In this document: piece by piece, positions 8,132 to 50,456 of the stretch
How positions within the stretch are numbered: position 1 is the stretch's first letter
How the letters are laid out: each line of letters opens with the position of its first letter
Source: an uncultured Chromatiales bacterium
GTDB taxonomy: Bacteria; Bacteroidota; Ignavibacteria; SZUA-365; CAYQST01
Length of the DNA: 64,000 nucleotides
Assembly (NCBI GenBank): GCA_964420295.1
Contig: CAYQST010000010.1
Span: forward strand, 6,554 to 70,553
Reading direction: 5' to 3'
Position numbers and translations under genes: made by a program
Notes under the pieces: generated by a model
What the model was told of the DNA's origin: nothing
The model's database searches: none
The model's input: the letters and a program-made list of their open reading frames with translations, nothing else

Positions 8132-9718
8132 ATGAGTGAGGTCGTGACCATCGCCCTGCCCTGGGGCCATCGCGAAGAAGAGCTGCAAGCCGCGATCGAA
8201 ATCCGCCTCGGAGCCGGAGCCCCGTACCGCGTGCTCAAACGCAGTCTCGATGCCCGCAATCACCGCGCCATCACGGTTCTGTACTCCATCGAGCCCGAGG
8301 GCCTCGATCCCTGCGAAACCATCCTCGAGAACATCGCCCTCCGCAAATGCCGACTCGCATCCCTGTTCGGAGCCACGCCCCCCCGCGTGGTGATCGTGGG
8401 CGCGGGTCCTGCGGGACTGTTCTGCGCCTGGTGGCTGGTGCTGCACGGACTCCGCCCCATCCTGCTCGAACAGGGTCCCCCGATGCGTGAGCGCATCCGC
8501 GACATGGCCCGGTTCATGAAAACCGGCGACCTCCACCCCCTGTCCAACATCTGTTTCGGAGCCGGTGGCGCCGGGGCCTGGAGCGACGGCAAGCTCATCA
8601 CCCGCATCCGCTCTCCGTACATTCCCTTCGTGATGAAAACCTTCGTGGACCTCGGCGGTCCCGAAGACATCCGCTATCTCTACAATCCCCACCTCGGCTC
8701 CAATCGCATCCGTCGCTGCATCTCCACCATGCTCGATCGCCTGGAAGAGGAAGGAGTGTCTCTGCGCACCAATACCCAGTGGACGGGCCTGGGCGCGGCG
8801 GAAGAAGGTCGCATCGGAACCGTGTGCACCAGCGAGGGTCCCATCGAAAACGTGTCGGCCCTCTTCGTCGCCACGGGACATTCCTCCCGCCTGAGCTTTT
8901 CCCTTCTCCGCGAAGCGGGAGTGGACATGGAAGCCAAGGATTTCGCGGTGGGATTGAGGGTGGAACATCCCGCCGACACCATCAACCGCCTGATGTACGG
9001 AGAGGAATACCGGGAGCGCTATCCGGGTATCGAAACCGCCCAGTACAAATTCGCGCGCACCTGGAAGGAACCCTATCAGGGCGTGTACTCCTTCTGCATG
9101 TGTCCCGGCGGCTACATTTTGAACGCCAGCACGGGACCCGAAGGCGTGGTGACCAACGGCATGAGCAATGCCCTCAAATCGGGCCGCTTCTCCAACGCCG
9201 CCGTGGTGGCGACGGTGACTCGCGAGGATCTGGCAAAGCTCGGCTATCACGGGGTGGACGCCAGTCTCGCCTTTCAGCAGGATCTCGAGGAACGCTTTCG
9301 CGCCTCGGTCAACCGACCCGGCCAGGCTTCGGTGCTGCCCGGACAGAGACTCGCCGATTTCGTGCAGGGTCGCCCCTCGTCCTCCCTCGGTCCCGGTTCC
9401 TGCCTCAATCCCACCCTGCCCGCTTCCCTGCATCAGCTCTTCCCGCCCCATCTCTACGAAGGGCTTCGACGTGGACTGACGAGTCTCGGAGGATCTCTCC
9501 GTCGCTTCTGCGAATCACCGGAAGCCCAGGCGTTCGGTGTGGAAAGCCGCACCAGCTCACCCTATCGCCTGCCCCGCGACCCTGTCACCTTGCAGTCCCC
9601 GTCCCGTCCCCACCTCTATCCCATGGGCGAGGGAGCCGGACACGCGGGAGGGATTACCTCGGCGGCGGTGGATGGTATTCGCTGTGCACAGGCATGGATG
9701 GAAGGGAGTAAAGAGTAA
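8132..9718 (+). CDS. FAD-dependent oxidoreductase (uncharacterised FAD-dependent dehydrogenase type)
   Basis: VVIVGAGPAGL Rossmann motif, GAGGAGAWSDGKL, YSFCMCPGG, GEGAGHAGGITSAAVDG. Confidence 0.88.
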   Translation: MSEVVTIALPWGHREEELQAAIEIRLGAGAPYRVLKRSLDARNHRAITVLYSIEPEGLDPCETILENIALRKCRLASLFGATPPRVVIVGAGPAGLFCAWWLVLHGLRPILLEQGPPMRERIRDMARFMKTGDLHPLSNICFGAGGAGAWSDGKLITRIRSPYIPFVMKTFVDLGGPEDIRYLYNPHLGSNRIRRCISTMLDRLEEEGVSLRTNTQWTGLGAAEEGRIGTVCTSEGPIENVSALFVATGHSSRLSFSLLREAGVDMEAKDFAVGLRVEHPADTINRLMYGEEYRERYPGIETAQYKFARTWKEPYQGVYSFCMCPGGYILNASTGPEGVVTNGMSNALKSGRFSNAAVVATVTREDLAKLGYHGVDASLAFQQDLEERFRASVNRPGQASVLPGQRLADFVQGRPSSSLGPGSCLNPTLPASLHQLFPPHLYEGLRRGLTSLGGSLRRFCESPEAQAFGVESRTSSPYRLPRDPVTLQSPSRPHLYPMGEGAGHAGGITSAAVDGIRCAQAWMEGSKE

Positions 9719-9728
9719 AGAGTGAAGG
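9708..9728 (+). repeat. Heptamer array site A (3 units)
   Basis: GTAAAGA GTAAAGA GTGAAGG; contains the oxidoreductase TAA and runs into the next SD (AGGAGG). Confidence 0.8.
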
Positions 9729-11794: not shown

Positions 11795-11900
11795 GTTCGC
11801 ACCGTGCGACGCCGGAATCGAAGAACGCGGCCTCGGTTGGTGATGCGCTCCACTTTCCGGATATTTGCTTTTCGAATCTCACGTGTAACGACAGGATCAC

Positions 11901-13385
11901 ATGGCACAACAGCAATCCATTCTCGATAAAATCGTCTCCCTGGCCAAACGGCGCGGGTTCGTGTTTCAATCCTCCGAGATTTACGGGGGACTCAACGGCT
12001 GCTGGGACTACGGTCCTTTGGGCGTGGAACTGCTCCGCAACATCAAGGAAAGCTGGTGGAAGGCGATGACCTATCGCGACGATGTCGAGGGAGTGGACGC
12101 GTCCATTCTCATGCATCCCCGGGTATGGGAGGCCTCGGGACACGTGGAAAACTTTACCGATCCCATGGTGGACTGTCGCGAATGCAAGAGCCGGTATCGG
12201 TTGGACGTTCTCTACGAGGGCATGAACGAGAAGAGACGGAAGAAGATCGTGGAGGCCTGGCTCGAGACCTGCGAGCCGGCTCGTCGCGAGCAGCTTCGAG
12301 CTCTCAGTGCCGAAGAGATCCAGGAAGAGGCAGGCAATGCCCTGGTGGACGATGCCGTGGTCTTCGAAGCCCTGAACACGAAGGAGCTTCTCCCCTGTCC
12401 CAACTGCGGGCGGACGGCGACCTTTACCCTGCCGCGAAAATTCAACCTGATGTTCAAGACCTTCGTGGGTCCGGTGGAAGACAGCAGCGCCGTGGTGTAC
12501 CTCCGTCCCGAAACGGCCCAGGGCATCTTCGTCAACTTTCTCAACGTAGCCCAGGCCACGCGTCAGAAGGTCCCGTTCGGCATCGCCCAGATCGGCAAGG
12601 CTTTTCGCAACGAGATCAACACCAAGAATTTCCTCTTCCGCACCCGTGAATTCGAGCAGATGGAAATGCAGTTCTTCGTGCGTCCCGGCACGGACGACGA
12701 GTGGTACGAGGACTGGCGGCAGAGGCGGATGCAGTGGTTCGTGGAAAACGGCATGACGGCCTCCCGGCTCCGTTACCATCCGCACGCGCCCGAAAAGCTG
12801 GCGCACTACGCCAAGGCGGCGGTGGACATCGAATACCAGTTTCCCTTCGGCTGGGGAGAGATCGAAGGCATTCACAATCGCACGAACTTCGATTTGAGTC
12901 GGCACATGGAGTATTCCACCAAGAGCATGGAATACTTCGACGACGAAACGAAGGAGAAGTACGTCCCCTTTGTCATCGAGACCTCAGCCGGAGCCAGTCG
13001 CTCCTTCATGGCCTTTCTGGTGGATGCCTACGAAGAAGAAGTGTTGGAAAAGGAAACCCGCGTGGTGTTGCGCCTCCATCCCCGTCTTGCCCCCTTCAAG
13101 GCGGCCGTGCTTCCGCTGGTCAACCGCGACGGTATGGACGAGATCGGTGCGAAACTACATCGTGAATTGCAGCGCGACGTCAAGGTCTTTTACGACGACA
13201 GCGGCTCCATCGGTCGCCGGTATCGTCGTCAGGATGAAATCGGCACCCCCTGGTGCTTCACGATCGACTCCCAAACCCTCGAGGACGGCACCATCACCGT
13301 GCGCCATCGCGACGCGATGCACCAGGAGCGCATCGCCCTGGCCTCCTGCCGTCGCTTCCTCCTCGACGGCCTCGCCACGCCTTAA
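11901..13385 (+). CDS. glyQS: Glycine--tRNA ligase, homodimeric type
   Basis: KRRGFVFQSSEIYGG, YLRPETAQGIF, FRTREFEQME, IGRRYRRQDEIGTP. Confidence 0.97.
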   Translation: MAQQQSILDKIVSLAKRRGFVFQSSEIYGGLNGCWDYGPLGVELLRNIKESWWKAMTYRDDVEGVDASILMHPRVWEASGHVENFTDPMVDCRECKSRYRLDVLYEGMNEKRRKKIVEAWLETCEPARREQLRALSAEEIQEEAGNALVDDAVVFEALNTKELLPCPNCGRTATFTLPRKFNLMFKTFVGPVEDSSAVVYLRPETAQGIFVNFLNVAQATRQKVPFGIAQIGKAFRNEINTKNFLFRTREFEQMEMQFFVRPGTDDEWYEDWRQRRMQWFVENGMTASRLRYHPHAPEKLAHYAKAAVDIEYQFPFGWGEIEGIHNRTNFDLSRHMEYSTKSMEYFDDETKEKYVPFVIETSAGASRSFMAFLVDAYEEEVLEKETRVVLRLHPRLAPFKAAVLPLVNRDGMDEIGAKLHRELQRDVKVFYDDSGSIGRRYRRQDEIGTPWCFTIDSQTLEDGTITVRHRDAMHQERIALASCRRFLLDGLATP

Positions 13386-13407
13386 CCCTTTACTCTTTAC
13401 TCTTCAC
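13380..13407 (-). repeat. Heptamer array site B (4 units)
   Basis: Minus strand reads GTGAAGA GTAAAGA GTAAAGG GTTAAGG immediately after the stop of the 13408-13740 gene. Confidence 0.8.
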
Positions 13408-13792: not shown

Positions 13793-13889
13793 GAAAAGGG
13801 TGGAAGGGGGGGGGTGAATGCGTGAATGGGGGAATGCGTAAATGGCCGCGTTCTCTTCCTCTTAACCCTTCACTCTTTTCTCTCTTGAC
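13793..13889. repeat. Composite palindromic element, site C: purine arm, octamer core, inverse heptamer arm
   Basis: GAAAAGG GTGGAAGG, G9, GTGAATGC GTGAATGG GGGAATGC GTAAATGG, then TCTTAAC CCTTCAC TCTTTTC. Confidence 0.7.
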
Positions 13890-16088: not shown

Positions 16089-18502
16089 GGCCACCAATGA
16101 AACCGACCCTGTGGATCACCATTCTCGTTGCCTTGGTGAGCGCGCCCCTGCCCTGCCAGGCCCAGTGGCGCTGGCTCTACCCTTCCCTGCGCGGAGAGTT
16201 TCGGTCCTGCGTCATGGCGAGCGCCGATCATGCCTACATCCTGACCGCCTCCGACAGCGTGCTGGAGACCAGGGATCAGGGGCGTACCTGGACCACGATG
16301 GAGGTGGACGGACTGCCTACTTTCGGCGTGTTCTTTCGCCCGTCCCTTGGATTCCTGGTGGTGCGGGACCGGGGTGCGGGGTCCAATCTCCTGCTATCCT
16401 GGCATATCCTGAAGACCTCGAACGGGGGACAGAGCTGGCATCGCCTGCCTCCCACCTTCGGGGATGTGGTGGATGTGTACTTCGGCACGGATTCCCTGGG
16501 CTGGGTGACCCTGCGCACGGGAGCGGGTATGCACACGACGGACGGAGGGCAAACATGGGAACCGAACGCGCCGGGGACCCCACCGATCATACGCTGGATG
16601 GATCGGAACACCTGGTATGGATACCGGCATTATTCCACTGAAGTCGGACGAAGGGACAGTGTGCTCTGGTACTCTTTCGATGGAGGCGCCACTTGGAAAA
16701 AAAGAACGTTTACCGCGTTTCCAAGAATAGGTACTGGCTATACACTGCAATCTGAGTGTCTGTCTCTTACACATACTTCCACGGGAACGTTTTTAGCTCT
16801 AAATCATGTATATGCACTTTCGCCTAGCATGCAGACCTTTTTTACATCATTCAGTATTGCCCGATCGAACGACTCAGGACGTACATGGAGTATGGAATAT
16901 AATCCCGTTGTCTTTCAGACAACGGGAAGTAGCCAACGGGCGGAAGGTCAGCATAACAGAGCGTTTCCATATCGATTTCTTTCCTTGGGAGATTCGGTCG
17001 TGGCGGTTGTTTCGGATATTGGAAGGAACTGGCTTCGATTCGTGAATGGGGCCCAAGCGTCCATCACTATCGATATCCTATTTGATGAATTCACAAATTG
17101 CGGCTACGATTCAGACCATGAGGGACGTGTGATCGCGGTTTCGTCTTCGCGAAAGCGCATACAATGGAGTACTGATGTCGGAAACACCTGGACGTGGCGA
17201 AATGACGAGGAGATGATCAACACAAGCATGGTCCGGGCACTCCTTTCTTTTCATTCCACGGGACTCGTGATCGGGTATGCTCCGTACTACGTGGCTCTCT
17301 CGAAGAATGGCTACCTGGTGTTCGATGGGGTGCAAAAGATTCACGATAGCACGAGTAGCATGCATATCGTCGAAGATGGGCCCTGTCAAACTCTTGATGA
17401 TCATCGCGCCCTGCTGGCAAATACAGGATCGAGCACATATCAGATGTTTGAGTTAACAGACAACAAGGAGTGGTTCCCGATCACTTCATACTTTAATAAG
17501 CCAACACCCGTCCAATCACCGCTCGGCACATCCTACTATCTTGGAGCTGGACGTGCCGTTATTGCCGCCGCGGATGGCGTGATTTATGCCCATGTGGAAG
17601 ATACCTGGGAATGGAAGAGAGTGGATTCCGTTATTGATTTCGCTGGATCTGAAGCGGCGAGTCAACGTATGAGATTTTTTTCTCGCGATGAAGGAGTCTG
17701 TGTTGACTATGAACAGGGCTCCTATCGGAGTAGAACGGGACTTGATAGCCTTGTGTATTTTCTTACCGTGAGAACGACCTCGGATGGAGGAAAGTCTTGG
17801 ACCAGAATACAAACTCCTCTTAAGCAGTTCATCCAACTCGTACAGCCATCACTTGCAAACAAATCCTCGCTCGGGATTCTGAATCGTCATTCCTATCTCA
17901 CCGGGAACCCCGATGGAATTCGCAAAACCACGGATTGGGGACATACATGGACCTTAGTTTGTCCCGCGACGGAAGGGATCTTTTCCATTAGCGCGGTGGA
18001 TTCGCTTCGCGCTTTTGCCACGACGGAGCACGAACTACTAGGTACGATTGATGGAGGACAAAGGTGGTCACGTATCACACCACGAGATGCATCGGGACGT
18101 GTTCTTAGTGCGGGAGTCTTTACGAAGGTCTTCACCACGCCCTCCGGCTTCGTGCTCGCCTGCCTGCCGGATGGCTTCATCGGAGGCATGGCGGATTCCA
18201 TCCTCACAGGGGTGGACCGTACGGAGCCCGTGTTCCCCACCGACCCGCTTCGCATCTACCCAAACCCCGGTGTTGCGGGTGGGACTGTCCGCATCCGGTT
18301 TACACAGCAGACAGCGGGGAGTGCCTCGATTACCCTGTACTCCTTGCTGGGCCAGCATCTGCATCACGAGATCCTCGACGACCGTCACGTAGGCCCCCGT
18401 GAGGTTACTCTGTGCACCGCCGGCCTCCCGCCCGGACTCTACTTTGTCGCGGTGTCCACGCCCGAAGGAGTGAGGGTGGGGAAGGTGGTGGTGGGAAGGT
18501 GA
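16085..18502 (+). CDS. Secreted BNR/Asp-box beta-propeller protein with T9SS C-terminal sorting domain
   Basis: Signal peptide; repeated (S/T)xDxGxTW motifs; C-terminal IYPNP...ITLYSLLGQ...LPPGLYFV...KVVV. Confidence 0.88.
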   Translation: MRPPMKPTLWITILVALVSAPLPCQAQWRWLYPSLRGEFRSCVMASADHAYILTASDSVLETRDQGRTWTTMEVDGLPTFGVFFRPSLGFLVVRDRGAGSNLLLSWHILKTSNGGQSWHRLPPTFGDVVDVYFGTDSLGWVTLRTGAGMHTTDGGQTWEPNAPGTPPIIRWMDRNTWYGYRHYSTEVGRRDSVLWYSFDGGATWKKRTFTAFPRIGTGYTLQSECLSLTHTSTGTFLALNHVYALSPSMQTFFTSFSIARSNDSGRTWSMEYNPVVFQTTGSSQRAEGQHNRAFPYRFLSLGDSVVAVVSDIGRNWLRFVNGAQASITIDILFDEFTNCGYDSDHEGRVIAVSSSRKRIQWSTDVGNTWTWRNDEEMINTSMVRALLSFHSTGLVIGYAPYYVALSKNGYLVFDGVQKIHDSTSSMHIVEDGPCQTLDDHRALLANTGSSTYQMFELTDNKEWFPITSYFNKPTPVQSPLGTSYYLGAGRAVIAAADGVIYAHVEDTWEWKRVDSVIDFAGSEAASQRMRFFSRDEGVCVDYEQGSYRSRTGLDSLVYFLTVRTTSDGGKSWTRIQTPLKQFIQLVQPSLANKSSLGILNRHSYLTGNPDGIRKTTDWGHTWTLVCPATEGIFSISAVDSLRAFATTEHELLGTIDGGQRWSRITPRDASGRVLSAGVFTKVFTTPSGFVLACLPDGFIGGMADSILTGVDRTEPVFPTDPLRIYPNPGVAGGTVRIRFTQQTAGSASITLYSLLGQHLHHEILDDRHVGPREVTLCTAGLPPGLYFVAVSTPEGVRVGKVVVGR

Positions 18503-18609
18503 AGTGTGAAGAGAAAAGAGTAAAGGCGTGTATACGTGAATAGGTGAATGAGTGAATACGATAATGGGTGAAGGAGCGCCCCCTTTACTCTTTCCCCTTT
18601 ACTCTTCCC
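18499..18609. repeat. Composite palindromic element, site D
   Basis: GTGAAGT GTGAAGA GAAAAGA GTAAAGG / GTGTATAC GTGAATAG GTGAATGA GTGAATAC GATAATGG GTGAAGG / CCTTTAC TCTTTCC CCTTTAC TCTTCCC; first unit holds the upstream TGA. Confidence 0.8.
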
Positions 18610-39117: not shown

Positions 39118-40161
39118 TCAGTGGATGAACGTCAGAATGCGATTCCAGCGGATGGACGTGAAGCGGCGGAAGAAGGAGTTGGAGGTACCCGGATCCCAGG
39201 ACCAGAACACCACCAGCACCTCACCGAGGATTTCGCGTTCTGGCACAAAGCCCCAGTAGCGGCTGTCTCGGCTGTTGTCGCGATTGTCTCCCAGGAAGAA
39301 GTAATAATCGCGTTCCACCACATAGCGACTGCTCAGGTGCTCGTCGATCTCGATCTGTCCATAGGTGTTGAAGCGGATGGAATGTCCCTCTGCCTGTATA
39401 AAGCCCCTCCATTGATCGAGATTATCGTAGGTCAGGTGGATCTCCATGCCTTCATAGGGAACGACCACCGGTCCCCACCAATCCTTGTTGAACGGAAGGC
39501 CCTTCGGAAAAATGTCCGGCTCGATTTCACCCCGTCTCATGGAGAAGGCATCGAAGGACGCGGAGGAAGGGGGCGGCTCAGGATTCCCATTGATATAGAG
39601 ACGCTTTCCCGCCAGTTCCACGGTGTCCCCCGGCAGGCCCACGCAGCGTTTGACAAACCAGGTGGGTACGGAAGGAAGATCCACACCTCGGGAAACGGTA
39701 TGGCGAAACACCGTCACGTCTCCGCGATCCACCGCGCCGATACCGGGCATCAGATTCAAAAATGGCAGGGGAATTCCCAGCAAGGGCACCGAACGAGGGG
39801 TGAAGAACCCGTACGCCACTTTGTTGACCAGGACCGCGTCACCCGGAAGAAGCGTGTCCTCCATGGATGGCGAGGGGATGGTAAAGGATTCGAGGAAGAA
39901 GAGATTGATGAGGAGGGCGACGCTCAGTCCCCAAAGGAGGGGACCCCGCATCAGCCGAAGGGCGCGGGCGGTGCGAGGACTGAGGCGCACTGTCTGAGAC
40001 GATGTCGTGGGAGGAGACATCGATGCCTCCACAAGAGGATCCGATGACTCGACAGGAGGAACCGATGACTCGACAGGAGGTGCTGATGACTCGACAGGAG
40101 GTATCGATACCTCGGCAGGATGCGTCGTTGTCGAGGCAGAGGGATCGGGTTCCTCGCTCAT
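39118..40161 (-). CDS. lepB: Signal peptidase I (second copy) with an N-terminal repeat
   Basis: IPSPSMEDTL catalytic Ser, FVKRCVG Lys, GDNRDNSRDSRYWG. Confidence 0.92.
   Translation of the reverse strand: MSEEPDPSASTTTHPAEVSIPPVESSAPPVESSVPPVESSDPLVEASMSPPTTSSQTVRLSPRTARALRLMRGPLLWGLSVALLINLFFLESFTIPSPSMEDTLLPGDAVLVNKVAYGFFTPRSVPLLGIPLPFLNLMPGIGAVDRGDVTVFRHTVSRGVDLPSVPTWFVKRCVGLPGDTVELAGKRLYINGNPEPPPSSASFDAFSMRRGEIEPDIFPKGLPFNKDWWGPVVVPYEGMEIHLTYDNLDQWRGFIQAEGHSIRFNTYGQIEIDEHLSSRYVVERDYYFFLGDNRDNSRDSRYWGFVPEREILGEVLVVFWSWDPGTSNSFFRRFTSIRWNRILTFIH
40021..40125 (-). repeat. Five 21-bp tandem units encoding a PPVESSx heptapeptide
   Basis: Core CGATGACTCGACAGGAGG repeated with a period of 21 nt. 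Confidence 0.85.
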
Positions 40162-45750: not shown

Positions 45751-46284
45751 ATGCCTAAAACTCCATCCGATATATCCGACTCCTCCACACCGCCACCTCG
45801 CTGGTTGGTGCTCTGTGTTCGTCCCCGCTACGAGCGGCGCGTGGATCTTCGATGTCAGCAGGCGGGAATCACGCGTTTTCTCCCTCTGCGCATGGAAGTG
45901 CGGCAGTGGTCCGACCGCAAGAAGATGGTGGAAGTTCCTCTCTTTCCCGGCTACCTGTTCGTTCGGGTTCGGGAACGAGAGCGCATCGCCGCCCTCGAGA
46001 TTGACGGCGCCCTCCACTATGTGGTGTTCGGAGGTCGGCCGGCCGTGGTGCCCGCCGCCGTAATGGATGGACTCCGCGCCCTGGTGGCCAGCTCCTGTCC
46101 GGTGGAGGCCCAAGCCCTTCCCCTGCAGCCCGGACGCCGCATTCGCGTGCTTCGGGGTCCCCTGTGTGGCGTGACCGGCGAGCTTCTCGAAACGAGAGGC
46201 AGCCACCGCCTTTTGATTCGCATCGATGCCATCGGCCAGGCAGCCGGGGTGGAGGTGGGAACCGACGACATTGAAATTCTGTAA
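45751..46284 (+). CDS. UpxY/NusG-family transcription antiterminator
   Basis: WLVLCVRP..E, RQWSDRKKMVEVPLFPGYLFV, KOW-like GRRIRVLRGPLCG; heads the polysaccharide locus. Confidence 0.9.
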   Translation: MPKTPSDISDSSTPPPRWLVLCVRPRYERRVDLRCQQAGITRFLPLRMEVRQWSDRKKMVEVPLFPGYLFVRVRERERIAALEIDGALHYVVFGGRPAVVPAAVMDGLRALVASSCPVEAQALPLQPGRRIRVLRGPLCGVTGELLETRGSHRLLIRIDAIGQAAGVEVGTDDIEIL

Positions 46285-46302: not shown

Positions 46303-47259
46303 ATGAAAAAAGCACTCATCACTGGAATCACGGGTCAGGACGGCAGCTATCTGGCGGAACTCCTTCTTGCGAAGGGCTATGAGGTTCATGGCATCGTTCG
46401 TCGCGTGGCGATCGAGGACCATGAACACCGGCTCGGTCGGATCAAGCATCTGCTCAGCGACATCCGCATCCATCCCGCTTCCCTGGAAAGCTACCCGAGT
46501 CTGTTCAACGTGGTGCGCGCCGTGGAGCCCGACGAATGCTACCACCTGGCGGCGCAGAGCTTCGTGAGTTATTCCTTCGAGGACGAGTTTTCCACCTTCA
46601 ACACCAACATCAATGGCACCCATTACATGCTGTCGTCGATCAAGCAGGTGGTACCCGACTGTCGGTTCTACTTCGCTGGTTCGAGCGAGATGTTCGGCAA
46701 GGTGGAGGAAGTCCCGCAGAACGAAAACACCCGCTTCCATCCTCGTTCCGCCTACGGTATCACCAAGGTGGCTGGCTACGAGCTGACGCGGAATTATCGC
46801 GAAGCCTACGGTTTGAAGACTGCCAACGGGATTCTGTACAATCACGAATCTCCCCGTCGCGGTTTCGAATTCGTCACCCGGAAGATTACCTCCACCGTTG
46901 CCCGGATCAAGAAAGGGCAGGCGAAGGAACTCCGACTGGGCAATCTCGATGCCAAGCGGGACTGGGGCTATGCGAAGGAGTATGTGGAGGCGATGTGGAT
47001 GATCCTTCAGCAGGAACAGCCTCAGGACTTTGTGATCAGCACCGGCGAGACCCACAGCGTGCGCGAATTCGTCGAAATCGCGTTTTCCAGCGTGGGCCTG
47101 AACTGGCAGGACCATGTCGTCGTCGATCCCATTCTCTTCCGCCCCGCCGAAGTGGATATCCTCCTCGGCAACCCCGCCAAGGCCGAACGAGAGCTCGGGT
47201 GGAAGTCCTCGACCTCGTTTCGGGAATTGGTGGAGTTGATGGTAATGAGTGAAGAGTAA
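46303..47259 (+). CDS. gmd: GDP-mannose 4,6-dehydratase
   Basis: ALITGITGQDGSYLAE, PRSAYGITK, NHESPRRG, LGNLDAKRDWG. Confidence 0.96.
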   Translation: MKKALITGITGQDGSYLAELLLAKGYEVHGIVRRVAIEDHEHRLGRIKHLLSDIRIHPASLESYPSLFNVVRAVEPDECYHLAAQSFVSYSFEDEFSTFNTNINGTHYMLSSIKQVVPDCRFYFAGSSEMFGKVEEVPQNENTRFHPRSAYGITKVAGYELTRNYREAYGLKTANGILYNHESPRRGFEFVTRKITSTVARIKKGQAKELRLGNLDAKRDWGYAKEYVEAMWMILQQEQPQDFVISTGETHSVREFVEIAFSSVGLNWQDHVVVDPILFRPAEVDILLGNPAKAERELGWKSSTSFRELVELMVMSEE

Positions 47260-47318
47260 AGAGTGAAGAGTAAAGAGTGAAGAGTAAAGAGTAAAGAGTA
47301 AAGAGTTAAGGGTAAAGT
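47249..47318 (+). repeat. Heptamer array site E (10 units)
   Basis: (GTGAAGA GTAAAGA)x3, GTAAAGA x2, GTTAAGG, GTAAAGT; the gmd TAA lies in unit 2. Confidence 0.92.
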
Positions 47319-47360
47319 CGCCCTCCTTCCCGACCATTTTCGTATTCATACAGGTAAGTC

Positions 47361-48557
47361 ATGAACGTTCCTCTTCTTGATCTCAAGCCGCAGTATCAGG
47401 CCCTCAAGGCCGAACTGGATTCCGCTCTCCTTCGTGTTGCCGAGAGCCAGTACTTTATTTTGGGTCCCGAAGTCAAGCAGCTCGAGGCCAATATCGCCGA
47501 GTATGTCGGCACGAAGCATGCCATCGGCGTGTCCTCGGGCACCGATGCCCTTCTCCTTGCTCTGATGGCCCTGGGCATTGGGCCGGGTGACGGAGTGATC
47601 GTGCCCACCTTCTCCTTTTTCGCGACGGCCGGGGTGGTGTCGCGGCTGGGGGCGACTCCGATTTTCGTGGACAATGATCCGGTGACCTTCAACATCGATC
47701 CGAAGGCCGTGGAGGCCGCGCTGGAGTGTTACGCGCATTCCGACATCACGGTCAAGGCCATCACGCCCGTACATCTGTTCGGGCAGGCGGCAGACATGGA
47801 TGGCATCATGGCCATCGCCGCGCAGCACGGCCTGAAGGTGGTGGAAGACTGTGCCCAGGCCATCGGGGTGCAGTACAAGGACGGACGCCGCGTCGGGAGC
47901 ATCGGCGACGTGGGGTGTTTCTCTTTCTTCCCGAGCAAGAACCTCGGATGTTTCGGAGACGGTGGCATCATCACGGTGAACGACGACGCTCTGGCTCACA
48001 TGATCGAGATCATGCGGGTGCATGGCGGCGAGCCCAAGTACTACCACAAGGTGATCGGCGGCAATTTCCGCATCGATGCCATCCAGGCGGCGGTGCTGAA
48101 CGTGAAGCTACCTCATCTGGATAGTTGGCACGAGGGACGTCGGCGTAACGCGGCCTTCTATACCAAGCATTTCGTGGAAGCGGGACTTGCCGAAGGAACC
48201 GGAAGAACCGCGTTCGACGACAAGAATGCCGTGCTTCTGCCCGCCAGTGTGTACGAGGATCAGGGTCACGCCCATCCCTACCTGCACATCTACAACCAGT
48301 ACTGCATCCGCGTACAGGATCGGGACGGACTCATCGATCACTTGCGCGCCCATTCCATCGGATGCGAAATCTATTATCCGGTTCCCTTCCACAAGCAGGA
48401 ATGCTTCCAGGACGTGCCCTCGTCCCGCGGTACCTATCCGCAGGCGGACGCGGCAGCCGGGTCGATCCTCGCCCTGCCGATTTTTCCGGAATTGACGGAA
48501 GAGCAGTTGGGGTATGTGGTGGAGGTGGTAAGGATGGGGGTAAAGAGTAAAGTGTAA
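47361..48557 (+). CDS. DegT/DnrJ/EryC1/StrS aminotransferase (WbpE-like)
   Basis: VEDCAQAIG, FSFFPSKNLGCFGDGG (PLP lysine), GGNFRIDAIQAA. Confidence 0.93.
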   Translation: MNVPLLDLKPQYQALKAELDSALLRVAESQYFILGPEVKQLEANIAEYVGTKHAIGVSSGTDALLLALMALGIGPGDGVIVPTFSFFATAGVVSRLGATPIFVDNDPVTFNIDPKAVEAALECYAHSDITVKAITPVHLFGQAADMDGIMAIAAQHGLKVVEDCAQAIGVQYKDGRRVGSIGDVGCFSFFPSKNLGCFGDGGIITVNDDALAHMIEIMRVHGGEPKYYHKVIGGNFRIDAIQAAVLNVKLPHLDSWHEGRRRNAAFYTKHFVEAGLAEGTGRTAFDDKNAVLLPASVYEDQGHAHPYLHIYNQYCIRVQDRDGLIDHLRAHSIGCEIYYPVPFHKQECFQDVPSSRGTYPQADAAAGSILALPIFPELTEEQLGYVVEVVRMGVKSKV

Positions 48558-48574
48558 AGAGTAAAGCGTAAAGC
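48540..48574 (+). repeat. Heptamer array site F (5 units), left arm of the four-helix-bundle cassette
   Basis: GTAAAGA GTAAAGT GTAAAGA GTAAAGC GTAAAGC; encodes the last residues and the stop of the aminotransferase. Confidence 0.9.
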
Positions 48575-48590
48575 AACGGGGGAGGTTGCA

Positions 48591-48962
48591 ATGGAAATCA
48601 AATTTCGACGATCTCATACGAAGCTGTTGGTTTGGAAAAGGGCGATCGAGCTCGTTGTTCTGGTATATCGTACGACGGAGCACTTTCCTCGTAGCGAAAG
48701 CCTTGGTCTTGTTACGCAGATGCGGCGAGCCGCCGTGTCCATCCCAAGCAATATTGCCGAAGGTGCTGGTCGCGGCTCCACAAAGGAGTTTCTTCGACAC
48801 CTCCGCATCGCACGGGGATCCCTCAGTGAGCTGGAGACCCAGATGTTCATTGCCCAAGAACTCACGCTCTGCATCCAACCCGAAATCACTCTCTCGCTCT
48901 GTCACCAAGTATCACGACTCCTGAGCGGCCTCATCAATCGTCTCAATCGAGCAGATCCCTAA
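48591..48962 (+). CDS. Four helix bundle protein (23S rRNA intervening-sequence protein family)
   Basis: LLVWKRAIEL, FPRSESLGLVTQMRRAAVSIPSNIAEGAGR, FLRHLRIARGSLSELETQ. Confidence 0.95.
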   Translation: MEIKFRRSHTKLLVWKRAIELVVLVYRTTEHFPRSESLGLVTQMRRAAVSIPSNIAEGAGRGSTKEFLRHLRIARGSLSELETQMFIAQELTLCIQPEITLSLCHQVSRLLSGLINRLNRADP

Positions 48963-48991
48963 CCCTTCACCCTTCACCCTTCACTCTTTAC
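48957..48991 (-). repeat. Inverse heptamer array (5 units), right arm of the cassette
   Basis: Plus strand CCCTAAC CCTTCAC CCTTCAC CCTTCAC TCTTTAC, starting across the four-helix-bundle stop. Confidence 0.9.
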
Positions 48992-48995
48992 CATC

Positions 48996-49862
48996 TTGAA
49001 AGGCCTCATCCTTGCCGGGGGCTCCGGCACCCGGCTCTATCCGTTGACGCGGGTGGTGAGCAAGCAGCTCCTTCCCGTGTACGACAAGCCGATGATCTAC
49101 TATCCCCTCACCACGCTGATGCTGGCGGGGATTCGGGAGATCTGCATCATTTCCACGCCCACGGACCTGCCACGATTTCGGGATCTGCTCGAAGATGGAT
49201 CCCGGTTCGGGGTGTCGTTTACGTATGTGGTGCAGGAGAGTCCCGACGGACTAGCTCAGGCCTTCATCCTCGGAGAGGAATTCATCGGGGGAGAGCCGAG
49301 CTGTCTGATTCTGGGGGACAATCTCTTTCATGGGTCACACCTGGCGCGCACCCTGCAGGAGGCCTCGCAGTTGACGGAGGGGGGCTGCATCTTCGCCTAT
49401 CAGGTGAGGGATCCCGAACGGTATGGCGTGGTGGAGTTCGATGCCGGCGGACGGGCGGTTTCCATTGAAGAAAAGCCCACGCGGCCCCGATCGACCTTTG
49501 CCGTGCCGGGCATCTACTTCTATGATGGCACGGCGTCGGCGCGGGCCCGCGCCCTTCGACCCTCGGCGAGAGGAGAGCTGGAAATCACCGATCTGAATCG
49601 GGTCTATCTCGAGGAAGGGCATCTGCAGGTGAAGATTCTCAGCCGGGGCACGGCCTGGCTCGACACGGGCACCCACGAATCCCTGCTTCAGGCCTCGCAG
49701 TTCATCCAGACGATTGAATTACGTCAGGGACTCAAGATTGGCTGTCCCGAGGAGGTGGCGTATCGGATGGGATTCATCGATCGGGAAACCCTGAGAAAGG
49801 CCGGGGAAGAGATGAGAAAGAACGAGTATGGGCTGTATTTGTTGGAAGTGAGTGAAGAGTAA
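48996..49862 (+). CDS. rfbA: Glucose-1-phosphate thymidylyltransferase
   Basis: [35 protein letters not shown]; TTG start. Confidence 0.96.
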
Positions 49863-49879
49863 AGGGTGAAGAGTGAAGG
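49852..49879 (+). repeat. Heptamer array site G (4 units)
   Basis: GTGAAGA GTAAAGG GTGAAGA GTGAAGG; holds the rfbA TAA and ends in the rfbC SD. Confidence 0.88.
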
Positions 49880-49883
49880 AGGG

Positions 49884-50456
49884 ATGGTGACGTTTATCGA
49901 GCTGAGTATTCCGGGAGTGATCGTGGTGGAGCCCGTGGTGCATGGGGACGAGAGGGGCTTTTTCATGGAGACGTTTCGGGAGTCGTTGTTTCGGGAGGCG
50001 GGAATCGATGGTCCCTTTGTGCAGGACAATCATTCGCGGTCCGGGAAGGGGGTGTTGCGGGGGCTGCATGTGCAGAATCCGTTTGCACAGGGGAAGTTGG
50101 TGCGGGTGATCGTGGGAGAGGTGTTCGATGTCGCGGTGGATGTCAGACCCGGTTCGCCGACGTTTGGGCGTTGGGAGGGAGAGGTACTGTCCGCCGACAA
50201 TCGCAGGATGTTGTGGATACCACCGGGCTTTGCGCATGGATTCTGTGTCCTGTCGGAGCAGGCGGAATTCGTGTACAAGTGTACCGAGTATTATCACCCC
50301 GAGGCGGAACAGAGCATTCTTTGGAATGATCCCCGCATCGGAATTCTCTGGCCCATTGCCGAGCCCCTGCTGTCGGAGCGGGATCGTCGCGGCATGAGTC
50401 TGGACGAATACCAGCGCCATCTCAACGATCACGTTCTTGAAGGACTACGGGTATGA
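49884..50456 (+). CDS. rfbC: dTDP-4-dehydrorhamnose 3,5-epimerase
   Basis: DERGFFME, QDNHSRS, VLRGLH, PGFAHGF. Confidence 0.96.
   Translation: MVTFIELSIPGVIVVEPVVHGDERGFFMETFRESLFREAGIDGPFVQDNHSRSGKGVLRGLHVQNPFAQGKLVRVIVGEVFDVAVDVRPGSPTFGRWEGEVLSADNRRMLWIPPGFAHGFCVLSEQAEFVYKCTEYYHPEAEQSILWNDPRIGILWPIAEPLLSERDRRGMSLDEYQRHLNDHVLEGLRV

Follow-up and report, generated by a model that had tools for sequence, protein, structure and literature searches.

A four-helix-bundle gene enclosed by inverted heptamer arrays in a polysaccharide operon shares the layout of 23S rRNA intervening sequences

Results

A bracketed gene between degT and rfbA

The window, by which we mean the whole 64-kb stretch of DNA analysed, carries a polysaccharide operon headed by a NusG-family gene. 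Between degT and rfbA of this operon lies a 452-bp segment in which a small gene of the S23p/four-helix-bundle family stands between two heptamer arrays of opposite orientation. The features of the junction are as follows.

45751–46284, plus strand: NusG-family gene, head of the polysaccharide operon (PF02357, E 7.7e-13)
47361–48557, plus strand: degT-family aminotransferase gene, the upstream host gene (PF01041, E 8.9e-112)
48540–48574, plus strand: 5' arm, five direct GTAAAGN heptamers, G/A-rich and C-poor
48575–48590, plus strand: spacer of 16 nt with SD-like GGGGGAGG at 48578–48585, 5 nt before the ATG
48591–48962, plus strand: four-helix-bundle (S23p) gene, 123 aa, matching PF05635 and TIGR02436
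48957–48991, minus strand: 3' arm, a degenerate unit over the stop, then GTGAAGG three times and GTAAAGA once; C-rich on the plus strand
48996–49862, plus strand: rfbA, glucose-1-phosphate thymidylyltransferase type, the downstream host gene (PF00483, E 9.8e-73)

The 5' array reads GTAAAGA, GTAAAGT, GTAAAGA, GTAAAGC and GTAAAGC, and ends 16 nt before the ATG, exactly as a first-pass annotation of this DNA had described it. That annotation also placed five inverse units across the stop codon. Four of these are clean (48964–48991, reverse complement GTAAAGA, GTGAAGG, GTGAAGG, GTGAAGG), whereas the fifth, CCCTAAC at 48957–48963, which spans the TAA stop of the gene, is in phase but degenerate.

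The fit to the neighbouring genes is close. The last five codons of degT and its TAA stop (48555–48557) fall within the 5' array, and the C-terminus of DegT diverges from its relatives from the array onward. Downstream, rfbA begins with a TTG start 4 nt past the 3' arm, without an SD motif, and its stop lies within the next array (49852–49879). The cassette sits at this junction and not in helix 25 or 45 of a 23S rRNA gene; no Rfam match was found in 47000–50200, and no promoter-like or terminator-like sites adjoin the cassette. Its transcription presumably arises from read-through of the operon. The NusG-family gene, whose position is kept in three relatives with syntenic operons (L003, L004 and L006), is likely an operon-specific antiterminator.

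Three other contigs of the source population were compared. Two contigs from the same sample (L001 and L002) show 100% identity with it. The third (L167) was compared across the cassette region alone, where a single SNP, within the ORF, sets it apart. The arrays match the window in all three, with no polymorphism in array copy number or presence.

The encoded protein belongs to a large and constrained family

The protein matches PF05635 (23S_rRNA_IVP; E 3.6e-33) and TIGR02436 ('four helix bundle protein'; E 4.4e-34) with scores of 114.4 and 117 bits, which exceed the curated cut-offs of 33.8 and 24, respectively. It is homologous to XCC0516 (PDB 2GSC; E 1.2e-26). PF05635 is the only Pfam assignment for the enclosed gene, the match to bAvd being weak (E 0.19). 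In an alignment of 34 homologues R46, S50, N54 and E57 are invariant, so that the protein has the RxxxSxxxNxxE motif whose conservation in the family was noted by Lin et al. 2006 and Zhang & Ye 2013 (PMC3936711). No nuclease, recombinase or transposase domain is recognisable in it.

Searched at E ≤ 0.001, 21,248 clusters at 50% identity match the window protein. In six pairs of family members dN/dS is 0.06–0.12, which indicates purifying selection; judged by these ratios, the four-helix-bundle protein is functional. SD-like motifs also occur upstream of many other family members. By tblastn, this is the only four-helix-bundle gene in the 64-kb window.

The repeat recurs in the window without the gene

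With at most one mismatch allowed, the window contains 34 copies of GTRAAGNGTRAAG; shuffles give an expectation of 0.54, and none of them reached 34. The first-pass annotation had reported the repeat without the gene at six other sites; we find it at seven other places, which include the following.

47242–47318, plus strand: solo array at the gmd/degT junction, 11 GTRAAGA units, containing the gmd stop
49852–49879, plus strand: solo array at the rfbA/rfbC junction, 4 units, containing the rfbA stop
18499–18609, both strands: arm–arm hairpin without ORF, heptamers at 18499–18526 (plus) facing inverse heptamers at 18582–18609 (minus)
9708–9728, plus strand: solo array of 3 units, holding the TAA stop of a gene for an FAD-dependent protein (8132–9718)
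13380–13407, minus strand: solo array of 4 units between convergent genes
13812–13880, both strands: octamer and heptamer pair, GTGAATNN octamers at 13812–13845 facing three inverse heptamers at 13860–13880 (minus)

The hairpin at 18499–18609 lies between genes that Pfam identifies as encoding a BNR/T9SS-tail protein and a cyclophilin; the TGA stop of the former is within its first unit. Octamers at 18528–18576 add to its first arm, and it folds strongly (-41.9 kcal/mol; z -5.25 on both strands). The octamer and heptamer pair, which lies between divergent genes, has weak structure, with fold z scores of -1.84 (plus strand) and -0.27 (minus strand). The array at 9708–9728 ends 8 nt ahead of the next ATG (9737), and that at 13380–13407 overlaps the stop of a class II aminoacyl-tRNA synthetase gene (11901–13385).

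Inverted arrays enclose most sampled members of the family

To compare the flanks of family members with those of other genes, we aligned each upstream flank locally with the reverse-complemented downstream flank and took the alignment score. The duplex energy of 100-nt flanks had been dropped as a statistic after high-GC proteobacterial control genes scored best; raw RNA duplex energy was replaced because it is dominated by GC content, and duplex folding repeated on long flanks was again uninformative. The inverted-flank score of conserved control genes is 16 at the median and 23 at the 95th percentile.

Complementary flanks are present in 59 of the 83 family members from unrelated contigs (71%), compared with about 5% of control genes; the enrichment of inverted arrays that the first-pass annotation had proposed to look for thus exists. 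Across these 83 elements, 72% of true arm pairs reach a score of at least 24, as against 5.7% of mismatched arm pairs. Four-helix-bundle genes adjoining degT score at least 26 in 10 of 17 cases (Mann-Whitney p 1.1e-5). The arm–gene–arm layout is present in unrelated phyla. 'Family-wide' here covers only this part of the ~21,000-cluster family, because elements were sampled by similarity to the window protein.

The arrays have a characteristic geometry. Of 406 tandem arrays, 130 lie within 80 nt of a four-helix-bundle gene end where 4.9 are expected (~27-fold), and 104 of 120 arrays at such ends (87%) have period 7. The distance between paired arms clusters at 350–530 nt, the size of the gene. 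Handedness is fixed: pairs that enclose a gene are G-first in 66 cases and C-first in 4. ORF-less hairpins are G-first in 6/6 classifiable cases, and such G-first hairpins, found in the window and at other loci, have loops of 6–73 nt. Among 52 cases with a co-oriented upstream gene, 45 have the host stop within the 5' array or no more than 15 nt ahead of it, and the median gap from the 3' array to the next start codon is 11 nt. Period, spacing and composition were the only uses made of a strict home-made array caller, which called arrays in 31–32 of 83 elements, compared with 76 of 92 for TRF. The idea that the arrays act as insulators carrying 'stops in all three frames' was rejected, since all-frame stops occur in only 15 of 31 upstream arrays.

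Arrays also live independently of the gene: in comparable loci 127 of 145 heptamer or octamer arrays do not adjoin a four-helix-bundle gene. These arrays, together with those at the seven other places in the window, would fit a trivial explanation in which this genome abounds in heptamer arrays as an intergenic simple-sequence repeat, and two of them in opposite orientation enclose an ordinary small gene by chance; rfbA itself is flanked by inverted arrays, with a score of 41. Coincidence is nevertheless very improbable given the enrichment of arrays at the ends of four-helix-bundle genes, the gap between true and mismatched arm pairs, the fixed handedness and a layout shared by unrelated phyla and by rRNA.

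Related operons contain an empty site and non-orthologous occupants

The first-pass annotation had suggested aligning the degT–rfbA junction with relatives in search of an empty site, and one is present. In L023 the operon runs gmd, 38 nt, degT, 38 nt, rfbA, 16 nt, rfbC, without arrays or insert, and this is an empty orthologous site. Other relatives have occupants at these junctions. L047 has a complete arm–gene–arm element with GTAAAGG-type arms at gmd/degT, L007 has four-helix-bundle elements both at gmd/degT and after degT, L006 has one after degT, and L003 has a PDDEXK_3 gene at degT/rfbA. Junction occupants are 26–51% identical to the window protein, whereas unrelated database matches reach 57–60%; on sequence identity, the genes at the same junctions are not orthologues of one another. 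Even the closest operons are only 71–79% identical to the window in the host DegT, which leaves the exact limits of the insertion and any target duplication undefinable.

The bracket around most sampled members makes the gene look like a self-contained insertable unit and not a part of the operon. The first-pass annotation had interpreted arm, ORF and arm as such a unit, and the family-wide inverted arrays, the empty operon of L023 and the non-orthologous occupants bear this out.

We also considered the gene as an operon accessory, encoding an RNA-binding regulator that acts on purine-rich heptamer leaders, for example in anti-polarity or translational coupling, with the arrays serving as operon spacers. 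The solo arrays at successive operon junctions would suit this role: as RNA, both are rich in purines and lack structure (fold z 0.42 for the array at 47242–47318), and both end in SD-like sequence, which at 49852–49879 is an AAGGAGG ahead of rfbC. Relatives are often found in nucleotide-sugar operons, with gmd, rfbA, rfbC or degT homologues within 4 kb of the four-helix-bundle gene in 13 of 80 metagenome loci, and all three cultured examples are within polysaccharide loci. Furthermore, 45 of 75 four-helix-bundle genes are co-oriented with both neighbours. Against this stand the orthologous operon of L023 that has no such gene, the non-orthologous or nuclease-fold occupants elsewhere, and the atypical codon usage of the gene for its operon (GC3 0.556 vs 0.685–0.777 in adjoining genes). 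The same architecture also occurs in 23S rRNA, in cas operons, where PF05635 genes are also located (PMC3936711), and beside housekeeping genes of the window. We consider a regulatory accessory unlikely.

Across elements, pairing of the arms is symmetric between strands

The arms had been described as complementary. In the sense RNA of the window this holds for the outermost 10 bp, which pair perfectly, but the remainder of the stem is broken by A·C mismatches. Folded alone, the arms reach -20.7 kcal/mol (z -2.65) as sense RNA and -44.7 kcal/mol (z -8.67) as antisense. Folding of 48530–49000, a check that the first-pass annotation had proposed, pairs the arms in both the MFE and the centroid structures, but the whole 471 nt has a z of only 0.14.

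Across elements, arm mismatches comprise 63 G·U of the sense type, 55 of the antisense type and 128 transversions, and stem stability is strand-neutral, with 25 elements favouring sense and 25 antisense. With neither a G·U bias nor a strand difference, we rejected the proposal of selection on the arms to form a stem in sense RNA; given these symmetric mismatches and stabilities, nothing shows selection for an RNA stem in mRNA. For most elements an RNA-level stem is plausible on physical grounds.

This symmetry brings to mind mobile elements that act in DNA. In REPtrons, RAYT genes are flanked by inverted REP sequences, of which many gene-less REP or REPIN copies exist. The RAYT proteins belong to the HUH tyrosine transposases and have been shown to cleave REP hairpins. 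The cassette resembles a REPtron in having one small gene between inverted repeats and in the gene-less dispersal of the same repeat, often as hairpins. It differs in that the four-helix-bundle protein has no catalytic motif, unlike the HUH/Y1 transposase, in that its arms are tandem heptamer arrays and not the single palindromes of REPs, and in that four-helix-bundle genes recur in the sampled loci, each with its own arms.

In a REPtron-type element, the inverted arrays would be terminal repeats with a role in DNA, either as hairpins in single strands or as sites of recombination; the RNA stem would be a by-product, and the protein would bind the arrays and, with host enzymes, move the cassette and its gene-less derivatives. 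The strand symmetry argues for this, as do the far better antisense pairing of the window arms, the gene-less copies scattered in the window and other loci (G-first hairpins among them) and the differing occupants of the same junctions. Members of a protein subfamily also have repeat unit types in common despite dS of at least 1.3, at which synonymous sites are saturated, and this conservation may hint, indirectly, that the protein recognises the repeats. However, the window and L047 both have GTAAAG-type arms around proteins that are only 48% identical, which fits arms that track the host lineage and not the protein. Counter to the REPtron-type reading are also the lack of a catalytic domain, the lack of a target-site duplication definable at the available DegT identities, the absence of copy-number or presence/absence polymorphism in the one population sampled, and the RNA-level role demonstrated for the stem of rRNA intervening sequences (PMC4990558). 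We regard an element that works in DNA as a rather doubtful alternative; it overlaps with the cassette reading discussed below, the sole distinction being the level of arm function.

Discussion

We think it probable, if by no means settled, that the 452-bp segment is a promoter-less cassette of the intervening sequence (IVS) type, inserted in the degT–rfbA spacer and transcribed with the operon. An S23p/four-helix-bundle gene with its own ribosome-binding site would have entered a spacer of ~38 nt in a conserved gmd-degT-rfbA-rfbC operon. The fit is exact, the 5' array giving degT its stop and the 3' array ending 4 nt short of the rfbA start. Read-through of the operon would transcribe the cassette, and the single-stranded arms would pair into a long hairpin with the ORF extruded in its loop, as in a helix 45 IVS. 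The arms may lower the cost of sitting in a busy transcript and probably yield a separately processed small mRNA, possibly through RNase III cleavage. The encoded protein, predicted to be pentameric, would act on its own heptamer arrays, and the solo arrays and arm–arm hairpin of the window may be derivatives of such an element that lack the gene, or sites at which one can land.

The precedent for this cassette lies in rRNA. The statements of the first-pass annotation that the family was first found in the IVS of 23S rRNA, is related to Avd and has no assigned function all hold. IVSs that encode S23p occur in the 23S rRNA of Leptospira, Coxiella burnetii, Brucella and Haemophilus (Ralph & McClelland 1993; Warrier et al. 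2016, PMC4990558). The Coxiella IVS has a 28-bp terminal stem, within which RNase III cuts, and two to three tandem GACAGAT heptamers upstream of S23p, in a copy number that varies among strains (PMC4990558). Another example comes from one of the metagenomic contigs compared here (L146), in which a 23S rRNA gene, with a score of 1512 bits for Rfam LSU and with 5S next in line, has a four-helix-bundle ORF in a helix-45 insert. The insert ends just before the conserved GGUAGGAGAGCGU and is flanked by GGGGCGA/GGCGAGA heptamers on the 5' side and their complement on the 3' side; a fold of just these arms reaches -93.6 kcal/mol (z -10).

The window cassette has the same layout. It shares with 23S rRNA IVSs the protein family in the loop, the complementary termini, which here may form a stem, and a total length of ~430–530 nt, with the Coxiella IVS the tandem heptamers directly upstream of the S23p ORF, and with the helix-45 IVS of L146 heptamer arrays that are G-rich 5' of the ORF and complementary to this 3' of it. 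There are differences. The host of the window cassette is a polycistronic mRNA, in which it replaces the intergenic spacer and supplies the upstream stop, and its sense-strand stem is much weaker than that of an rRNA IVS. Whereas the Coxiella ORF is decaying and probably untranslated, the window ORF has a strong SD and relatives under purifying selection.

The first-pass annotation offered the locus as a candidate for an undescribed system. This is overstated, because the upstream heptamers and RNase III-cut stem of the Coxiella IVS, the classical S23p-bearing layout, are already published (PMC4990558). Paywalled papers aside, we found inverted heptamer arrays around four-helix-bundle genes described only in the paper on that IVS. 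What seems to be new here is the arm–ORF–arm layout outside rRNA, and how general it is.

The relationship to Avd, the accessory protein of diversity-generating retroelements (DGRs; PDB 4DWL; CDD cd16375; PMC10053308), is one of fold: the window protein is predicted to share the homologous pentameric four-helix bundle, and Avd binds nucleic acid in a complex. Membership of a DGR was rejected, as the neighbours are the sugar genes degT and rfbA and no RT-like YxDD protein occurs among window ORFs of at least 200 aa.

A broader scheme can be put forward tentatively, as a possibility that we hold less probable than the IVS-type cassette itself. PF05635 genes and their inverted heptamer arrays may form one very large class of autonomous, hairpin-bracketed insertable elements, of which 23S rRNA IVSs would be the copies that landed in rRNA. 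The pentameric ring protein would read the heptad register of the arms in RNA or single-stranded DNA and so drive processing or spread, and solo arrays and hairpins would be non-autonomous derivatives, as REPINs are to RAYTs. If so, polysaccharide operons would be a preferred habitat, and arrays at their junctions might help to shuffle sugar genes.

The function of S23p/four-helix-bundle proteins and the origin of rRNA intervening sequences are questions that have stood since 1993. With arms, a loop ORF and insertion sites, a 'hypothetical protein' becomes a defined genetic unit. A bracket that occurs in both mRNA operons and rRNA would explain why four-helix-bundle genes appear in operons as unrelated as polysaccharide and cas operons; it would also account for assembly breaks at such junctions, and for how nearby short arrays could pass for other repeat systems. 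Among cultured bacteria, arm–gene–arm elements are present in polysaccharide operons of Vreelandella titanicae (GCA_007786325.1, contig VNFE01000008.1, at about 21.6–27.0 kb) and of Desulfomarina profundi (AP024086.1, at about 815–820 kb). Processing, binding and mobility are measurable in these two carriers.

A similar kind of repeat is known from another lineage. Mazel et al. (1990) reportedly described short tandemly repeated heptamers (STRR) in cyanobacteria. We found no reported link between STRR and PF05635 genes in the literature. Compared from description, the cyanobacterial repeats have other unit sequences and another host lineage; like the arrays of the window, they are tandem heptanucleotide arrays that lie between genes within operons and occur in both orientations.

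An inverted-array bracket around a four-helix-bundle gene

Inverted heptamer arrays of fixed hand bracket most sampled members of the four-helix-bundle family (~21,000 clusters), a generalisation that merits follow-up. Our literature search found no report of inverted arrays as a general feature of these genes. In the window, the product of the gene at 48591-48962 clearly belongs to PF05635 (23S_rRNA_IVP) and TIGR02436 (four helix bundle protein) and is homologous to XCC0516, a pentameric protein of solved structure (2GSC, E 1.2e-26). The gene is flanked by a DegT-family aminotransferase gene and rfbA, in an operon ordered NusG-like, gmd, degT, four-helix-bundle gene, rfbA, rfbC, followed by oxidoreductase and acetyltransferase genes. 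Reading the sequence gave these features:

48540-48574, plus strand: 5' arm, five direct heptamers GTAAAGN
Between 5' arm and ATG: 16-base spacer containing GGGGGAGG
ATG 48591 to TAA 48960-48962, plus strand: four-helix-bundle ORF, 123 codons
48964-48991, minus strand: 3' arm, GTAAAGA GTGAAGG GTGAAGG GTGAAGG
Spanning the ORF stop, phase kept: degenerate fifth 3' unit, CCCTAAC

The first-pass annotation had counted five units on each side; the five direct units stand, and the inverse side resolves into four clean units and one degenerate unit across the stop. The two-unit heptamer pattern is found 34 times in the window, where 0.54 occurrences would be expected. The degT stop codon falls in the third unit of the 5' array, and rfbA starts at a TTG four bases past the 3' array. 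The cassette gene has its own SD and an atypical third-position GC (0.556 versus 0.685-0.777); promoter, terminator and Rfam searches at the site gave no match. The TTG of rfbA, in frame with the cassette-gene TAA and 12 codons further down (48960-48998), is a weak start codon without an SD, and lies at the base of the arm stem in the full-length fold.

Generality of the bracket

A profile was built from 120 homologues and every ORF of all loci was scored. Nearly all four-helix-bundle genes beside degT are preceded by a short purine-rich tandem array and followed by the array's reverse complement, with a unit that varies by element (GACACGGA, GAATGNNT, GAGTAAGTAGT and others). Flanks were compared by local alignment, the upstream flank against the reverse-complemented downstream flank (the inverted score). 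In 447 conserved control genes the median score was 16 and the 95th percentile 23; 10 of 17 four-helix-bundle genes reached at least 26 (p 1.1e-5). Scanning metagenomes with a 34-homologue alignment added 80 unrelated loci, and in most of them the bracket is obvious by eye. The enrichment of inverted arrays that the first-pass annotation had proposed to look for in relatives is evident: 59-60 of 83 elements with full flanks score at least 24 (71-72%, by alignment settings), versus only 5.7% of mismatched pairs, made from the upstream flank of one element and the downstream flank of another. Divergent subfamily members absent from the first-profile matches have the same bracket. Within 1.35 Mb, 130 of 406 tandem arrays lie no more than 80 nt from a four-helix-bundle gene (4.9 expected). 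Of 120 arrays near these genes, 104 have a period of 7 and 15 a period of 8; paired arms are mostly spaced by 350-530 nt.

In 66 pairs the order is G-rich arm, then C-rich arm, versus 4 of the opposite hand. Since the G-first form is its own reverse complement, this handedness is not polarity relative to the ORF; all six classifiable ORF-less hairpins are G-first. The elements fit the intergenic gap exactly: of 52 cases, 45 have the host stop inside the 5' array or no more than 15 nt ahead of it, and the next gene's start is a median of 11 nt past the 3' array. Purifying selection on the proteins is strong (dN/dS 0.06-0.12).

The highest inverted score among control genes (135) belongs to a hexapeptide acetyltransferase gene between long arrays (L007:11217-12028); this pair is C-first, meaning that the gene sits between two neighbouring elements. 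A predicted protein of 2474 aa, P0241, has 30 separate matches to four-helix-bundle query residues 35-80, which could reflect an artefact of repeats or an unusual fusion.

Occupants of the junction in related operons

A DegT scan of the genome collection yielded 80 more loci. The nearest DegT proteins share 78-79% identity with that of the window, and their contigs retain the order NusG-like, gmd, degT and differ from one another at the junction that follows. Locus L003 has a PDDEXK_3 (PF13366) gene there, with an inverted repeat on its flanks, and L006 a different four-helix-bundle gene, degraded in part, with purine-rich octamer-like units on one side and their complement on the other. L047 carries a four-helix-bundle gene with GTAAAGG/GTGAAGG arms at gmd|degT, a junction that in the window holds just a solo array of 11 units, and L007 has one such gene on either side of degT. 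The L023 operon reads gmd-38 nt-degT-38 nt-rfbA-16 nt-rfbC, with arrays and inserts absent; it is an empty site of the kind for which the first-pass annotation had suggested comparing relatives.

Junction occupants in relatives share only 26-51% identity with the window protein and so are no closer to it than its best matches anywhere, at 57-60% (Vreelandella, Gemmataceae, Desulfomarina and others); host genes of the operon relatives are 71-83% identical. These comparisons indicate that the occupants are independent insertions or replacements and not a vertically inherited operon member.

Relatives of the window protein are frequent in nucleotide-sugar operons: gmd, rfbA, rfbC or degT homologues lie no more than 4 kb away in 13 of the 80 metagenome loci (seven with an rfbA homologue), and all three cultured examples are in such operons. 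The other modules at these junctions, nucleotidyltransferase/HEPN-type pairs, PDDEXK_3 and a RAYT-like gene, are small and selfish-looking:

L003:11416-11805: PDDEXK_3 (PF13366, nuclease-fold) gene at the degT|rfbA junction of a relative; inverted repeat, score 34
L162:2327-2704 and L088:7606-7998: second and third PDDEXK_3 examples, one with inverted CGCAGAT repeats (score 27), the other with direct repeats
L007:7767-8556; L035:10765-12907; L170:328-1135; L003:13165-13678: nucleotidyltransferase/HEPN-type (toxin-antitoxin-like) pairs, same operon junctions
L018:5972-6568, minus strand: 198-aa ORF between degT and rfbA, Bacteroidota MAG

PDDEXK_3 may be a second small-gene family of the same lifestyle. 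Judged by eye, the L018 ORF resembles a tyrosine transposase of the IS200/RAYT type, with an HVHxxV motif. Some nucleotidyltransferase/HEPN-type pairs are enclosed by heptamer arrays. A ~175-bp tandem repeat with copies beginning CCCCTTTGTGTCTTAGTGG lies downstream of the L003 PDDEXK_3 gene (11800-12290), with an assembly gap within.

Arm pairing and the 23S rRNA intervening sequence

In the fold of 48530-49000 the arms are paired in both MFE and centroid structures, but the segment as a whole does not exceed shuffled sequences in stability (z 0.14). Folded by themselves, the arms reach -20.7 kcal/mol as sense RNA (z -2.65) and -44.7 kcal/mol as antisense (z -8.67). Beyond ten perfect basal pairs the sense helices are interrupted by A·C, as the first-pass annotation had correctly anticipated in describing pairing with mismatches, and the sense stem of the window copy is marginal. 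Of 83 elements, 43 have an uninterrupted arm helix of 12 bp or more, and in 14 it extends to 20 bp or more; folding the Vreelandella arms yields -65.7 kcal/mol.

At metagenome locus L146 the host is a genuine 23S rRNA gene (Rfam LSU, 1512 bits) with 5S behind it. An insert ending directly before the conserved GGUAGGAGAGCGU, a position that we take to be the helix-45 site, contains the four-helix-bundle ORF, which is flanked by GGGGCGA/GGCGAGA heptamers and their complement (fold -93.6 kcal/mol, z -10, 24-bp perfect base). The Coxiella burnetii intervening sequence has a terminal stem of 28 bp cut mid-stem by RNase III, and two to three tandem GACAGAT heptamers plus a degenerate one just before the S23p start, in copy numbers that differ among strains (PMC4990558). 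The window unit thus has the architecture of an S23p intervening sequence; the latter sits in an rRNA helix, whereas the window unit sits in an mRNA spacer. Being outside rRNA, the cassette is not a strict 23S intervening sequence, but it is built like one. Four-helix-bundle genes are also known wedged within cas operons, one such position being the cmr3-cmr2 junction (PMC3936711), and their relation to Avd has been noted (PMC10053308).

Cassette or DNA-level mechanism

The best-supported reading is an insertable, promoter-less cassette. Mechanism aside, the empty L023 site, the non-orthologous occupants and the family-wide bracket support the earlier proposal that arm, ORF and arm form a self-contained unit. 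Such a cassette would ride host transcription; it carries its own SD, and its arms could extrude it as a hairpin loop. Arms are long enough in most elements for the co-transcribed RNA to be a potential RNase III substrate, and by analogy with the rRNA intervening sequence we would expect processing.

Arm mismatches across elements comprise 55 A·C versus 63 G·U plus many transversions, and stems have the same stability in sense and antisense. These two results argue that arm complementarity is not maintained for sense RNA as such, which keeps alive the main rival, a REPtron-like DNA mechanism: symmetrical mismatches and equal strand stability fit arms that arise or are homogenised in DNA, or that act on either strand. 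Elements with proteins 67-85% identical and dS of at least 1.3 share unit types (GGATTCA; GAGTCNY; GTGGATA; GTGGYYA), some of them, such as L155 and L102, in different sequence surroundings, and this points to arms that are not neutral. Protein-repeat co-evolution would give such shared units. Counter to this, GTAAAG-type units are common to the window and L047, where the two proteins share only 48% identity, and most arrays in comparable loci (127 of 145) stand alone.

The repeat elsewhere in the window

Recurrence of the repeat without the gene was borne out, at seven further places instead of the six first counted, each at a gene end. One (18499-18609) is an arm-arm hairpin without an ORF (fold z -5.25); solo arrays as RNA are purine-rich and unstructured. 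An octamer repeat, GTGAATNN, is a second kind of unit and lies beside heptamers at 13812-13845 and 18528-18576; the octamer-like units flanking the L006 four-helix-bundle gene are similar to it. Two independent short-read contigs of the window's population (L001 and L002) start inside the 11-unit gmd|degT array (47263, 47277); such arrays break assemblies. A T9SS sorting domain encoded in the window, together with the best operon matches, assigns the source organism to the FCB group (Ignavibacteriota/Bacteroidota-like). The window also holds, at 40021-40120, 4.8 copies of a 21-nt tandem repeat (CGATGACTCGACAGGAGGATC) unrelated to the heptamers.
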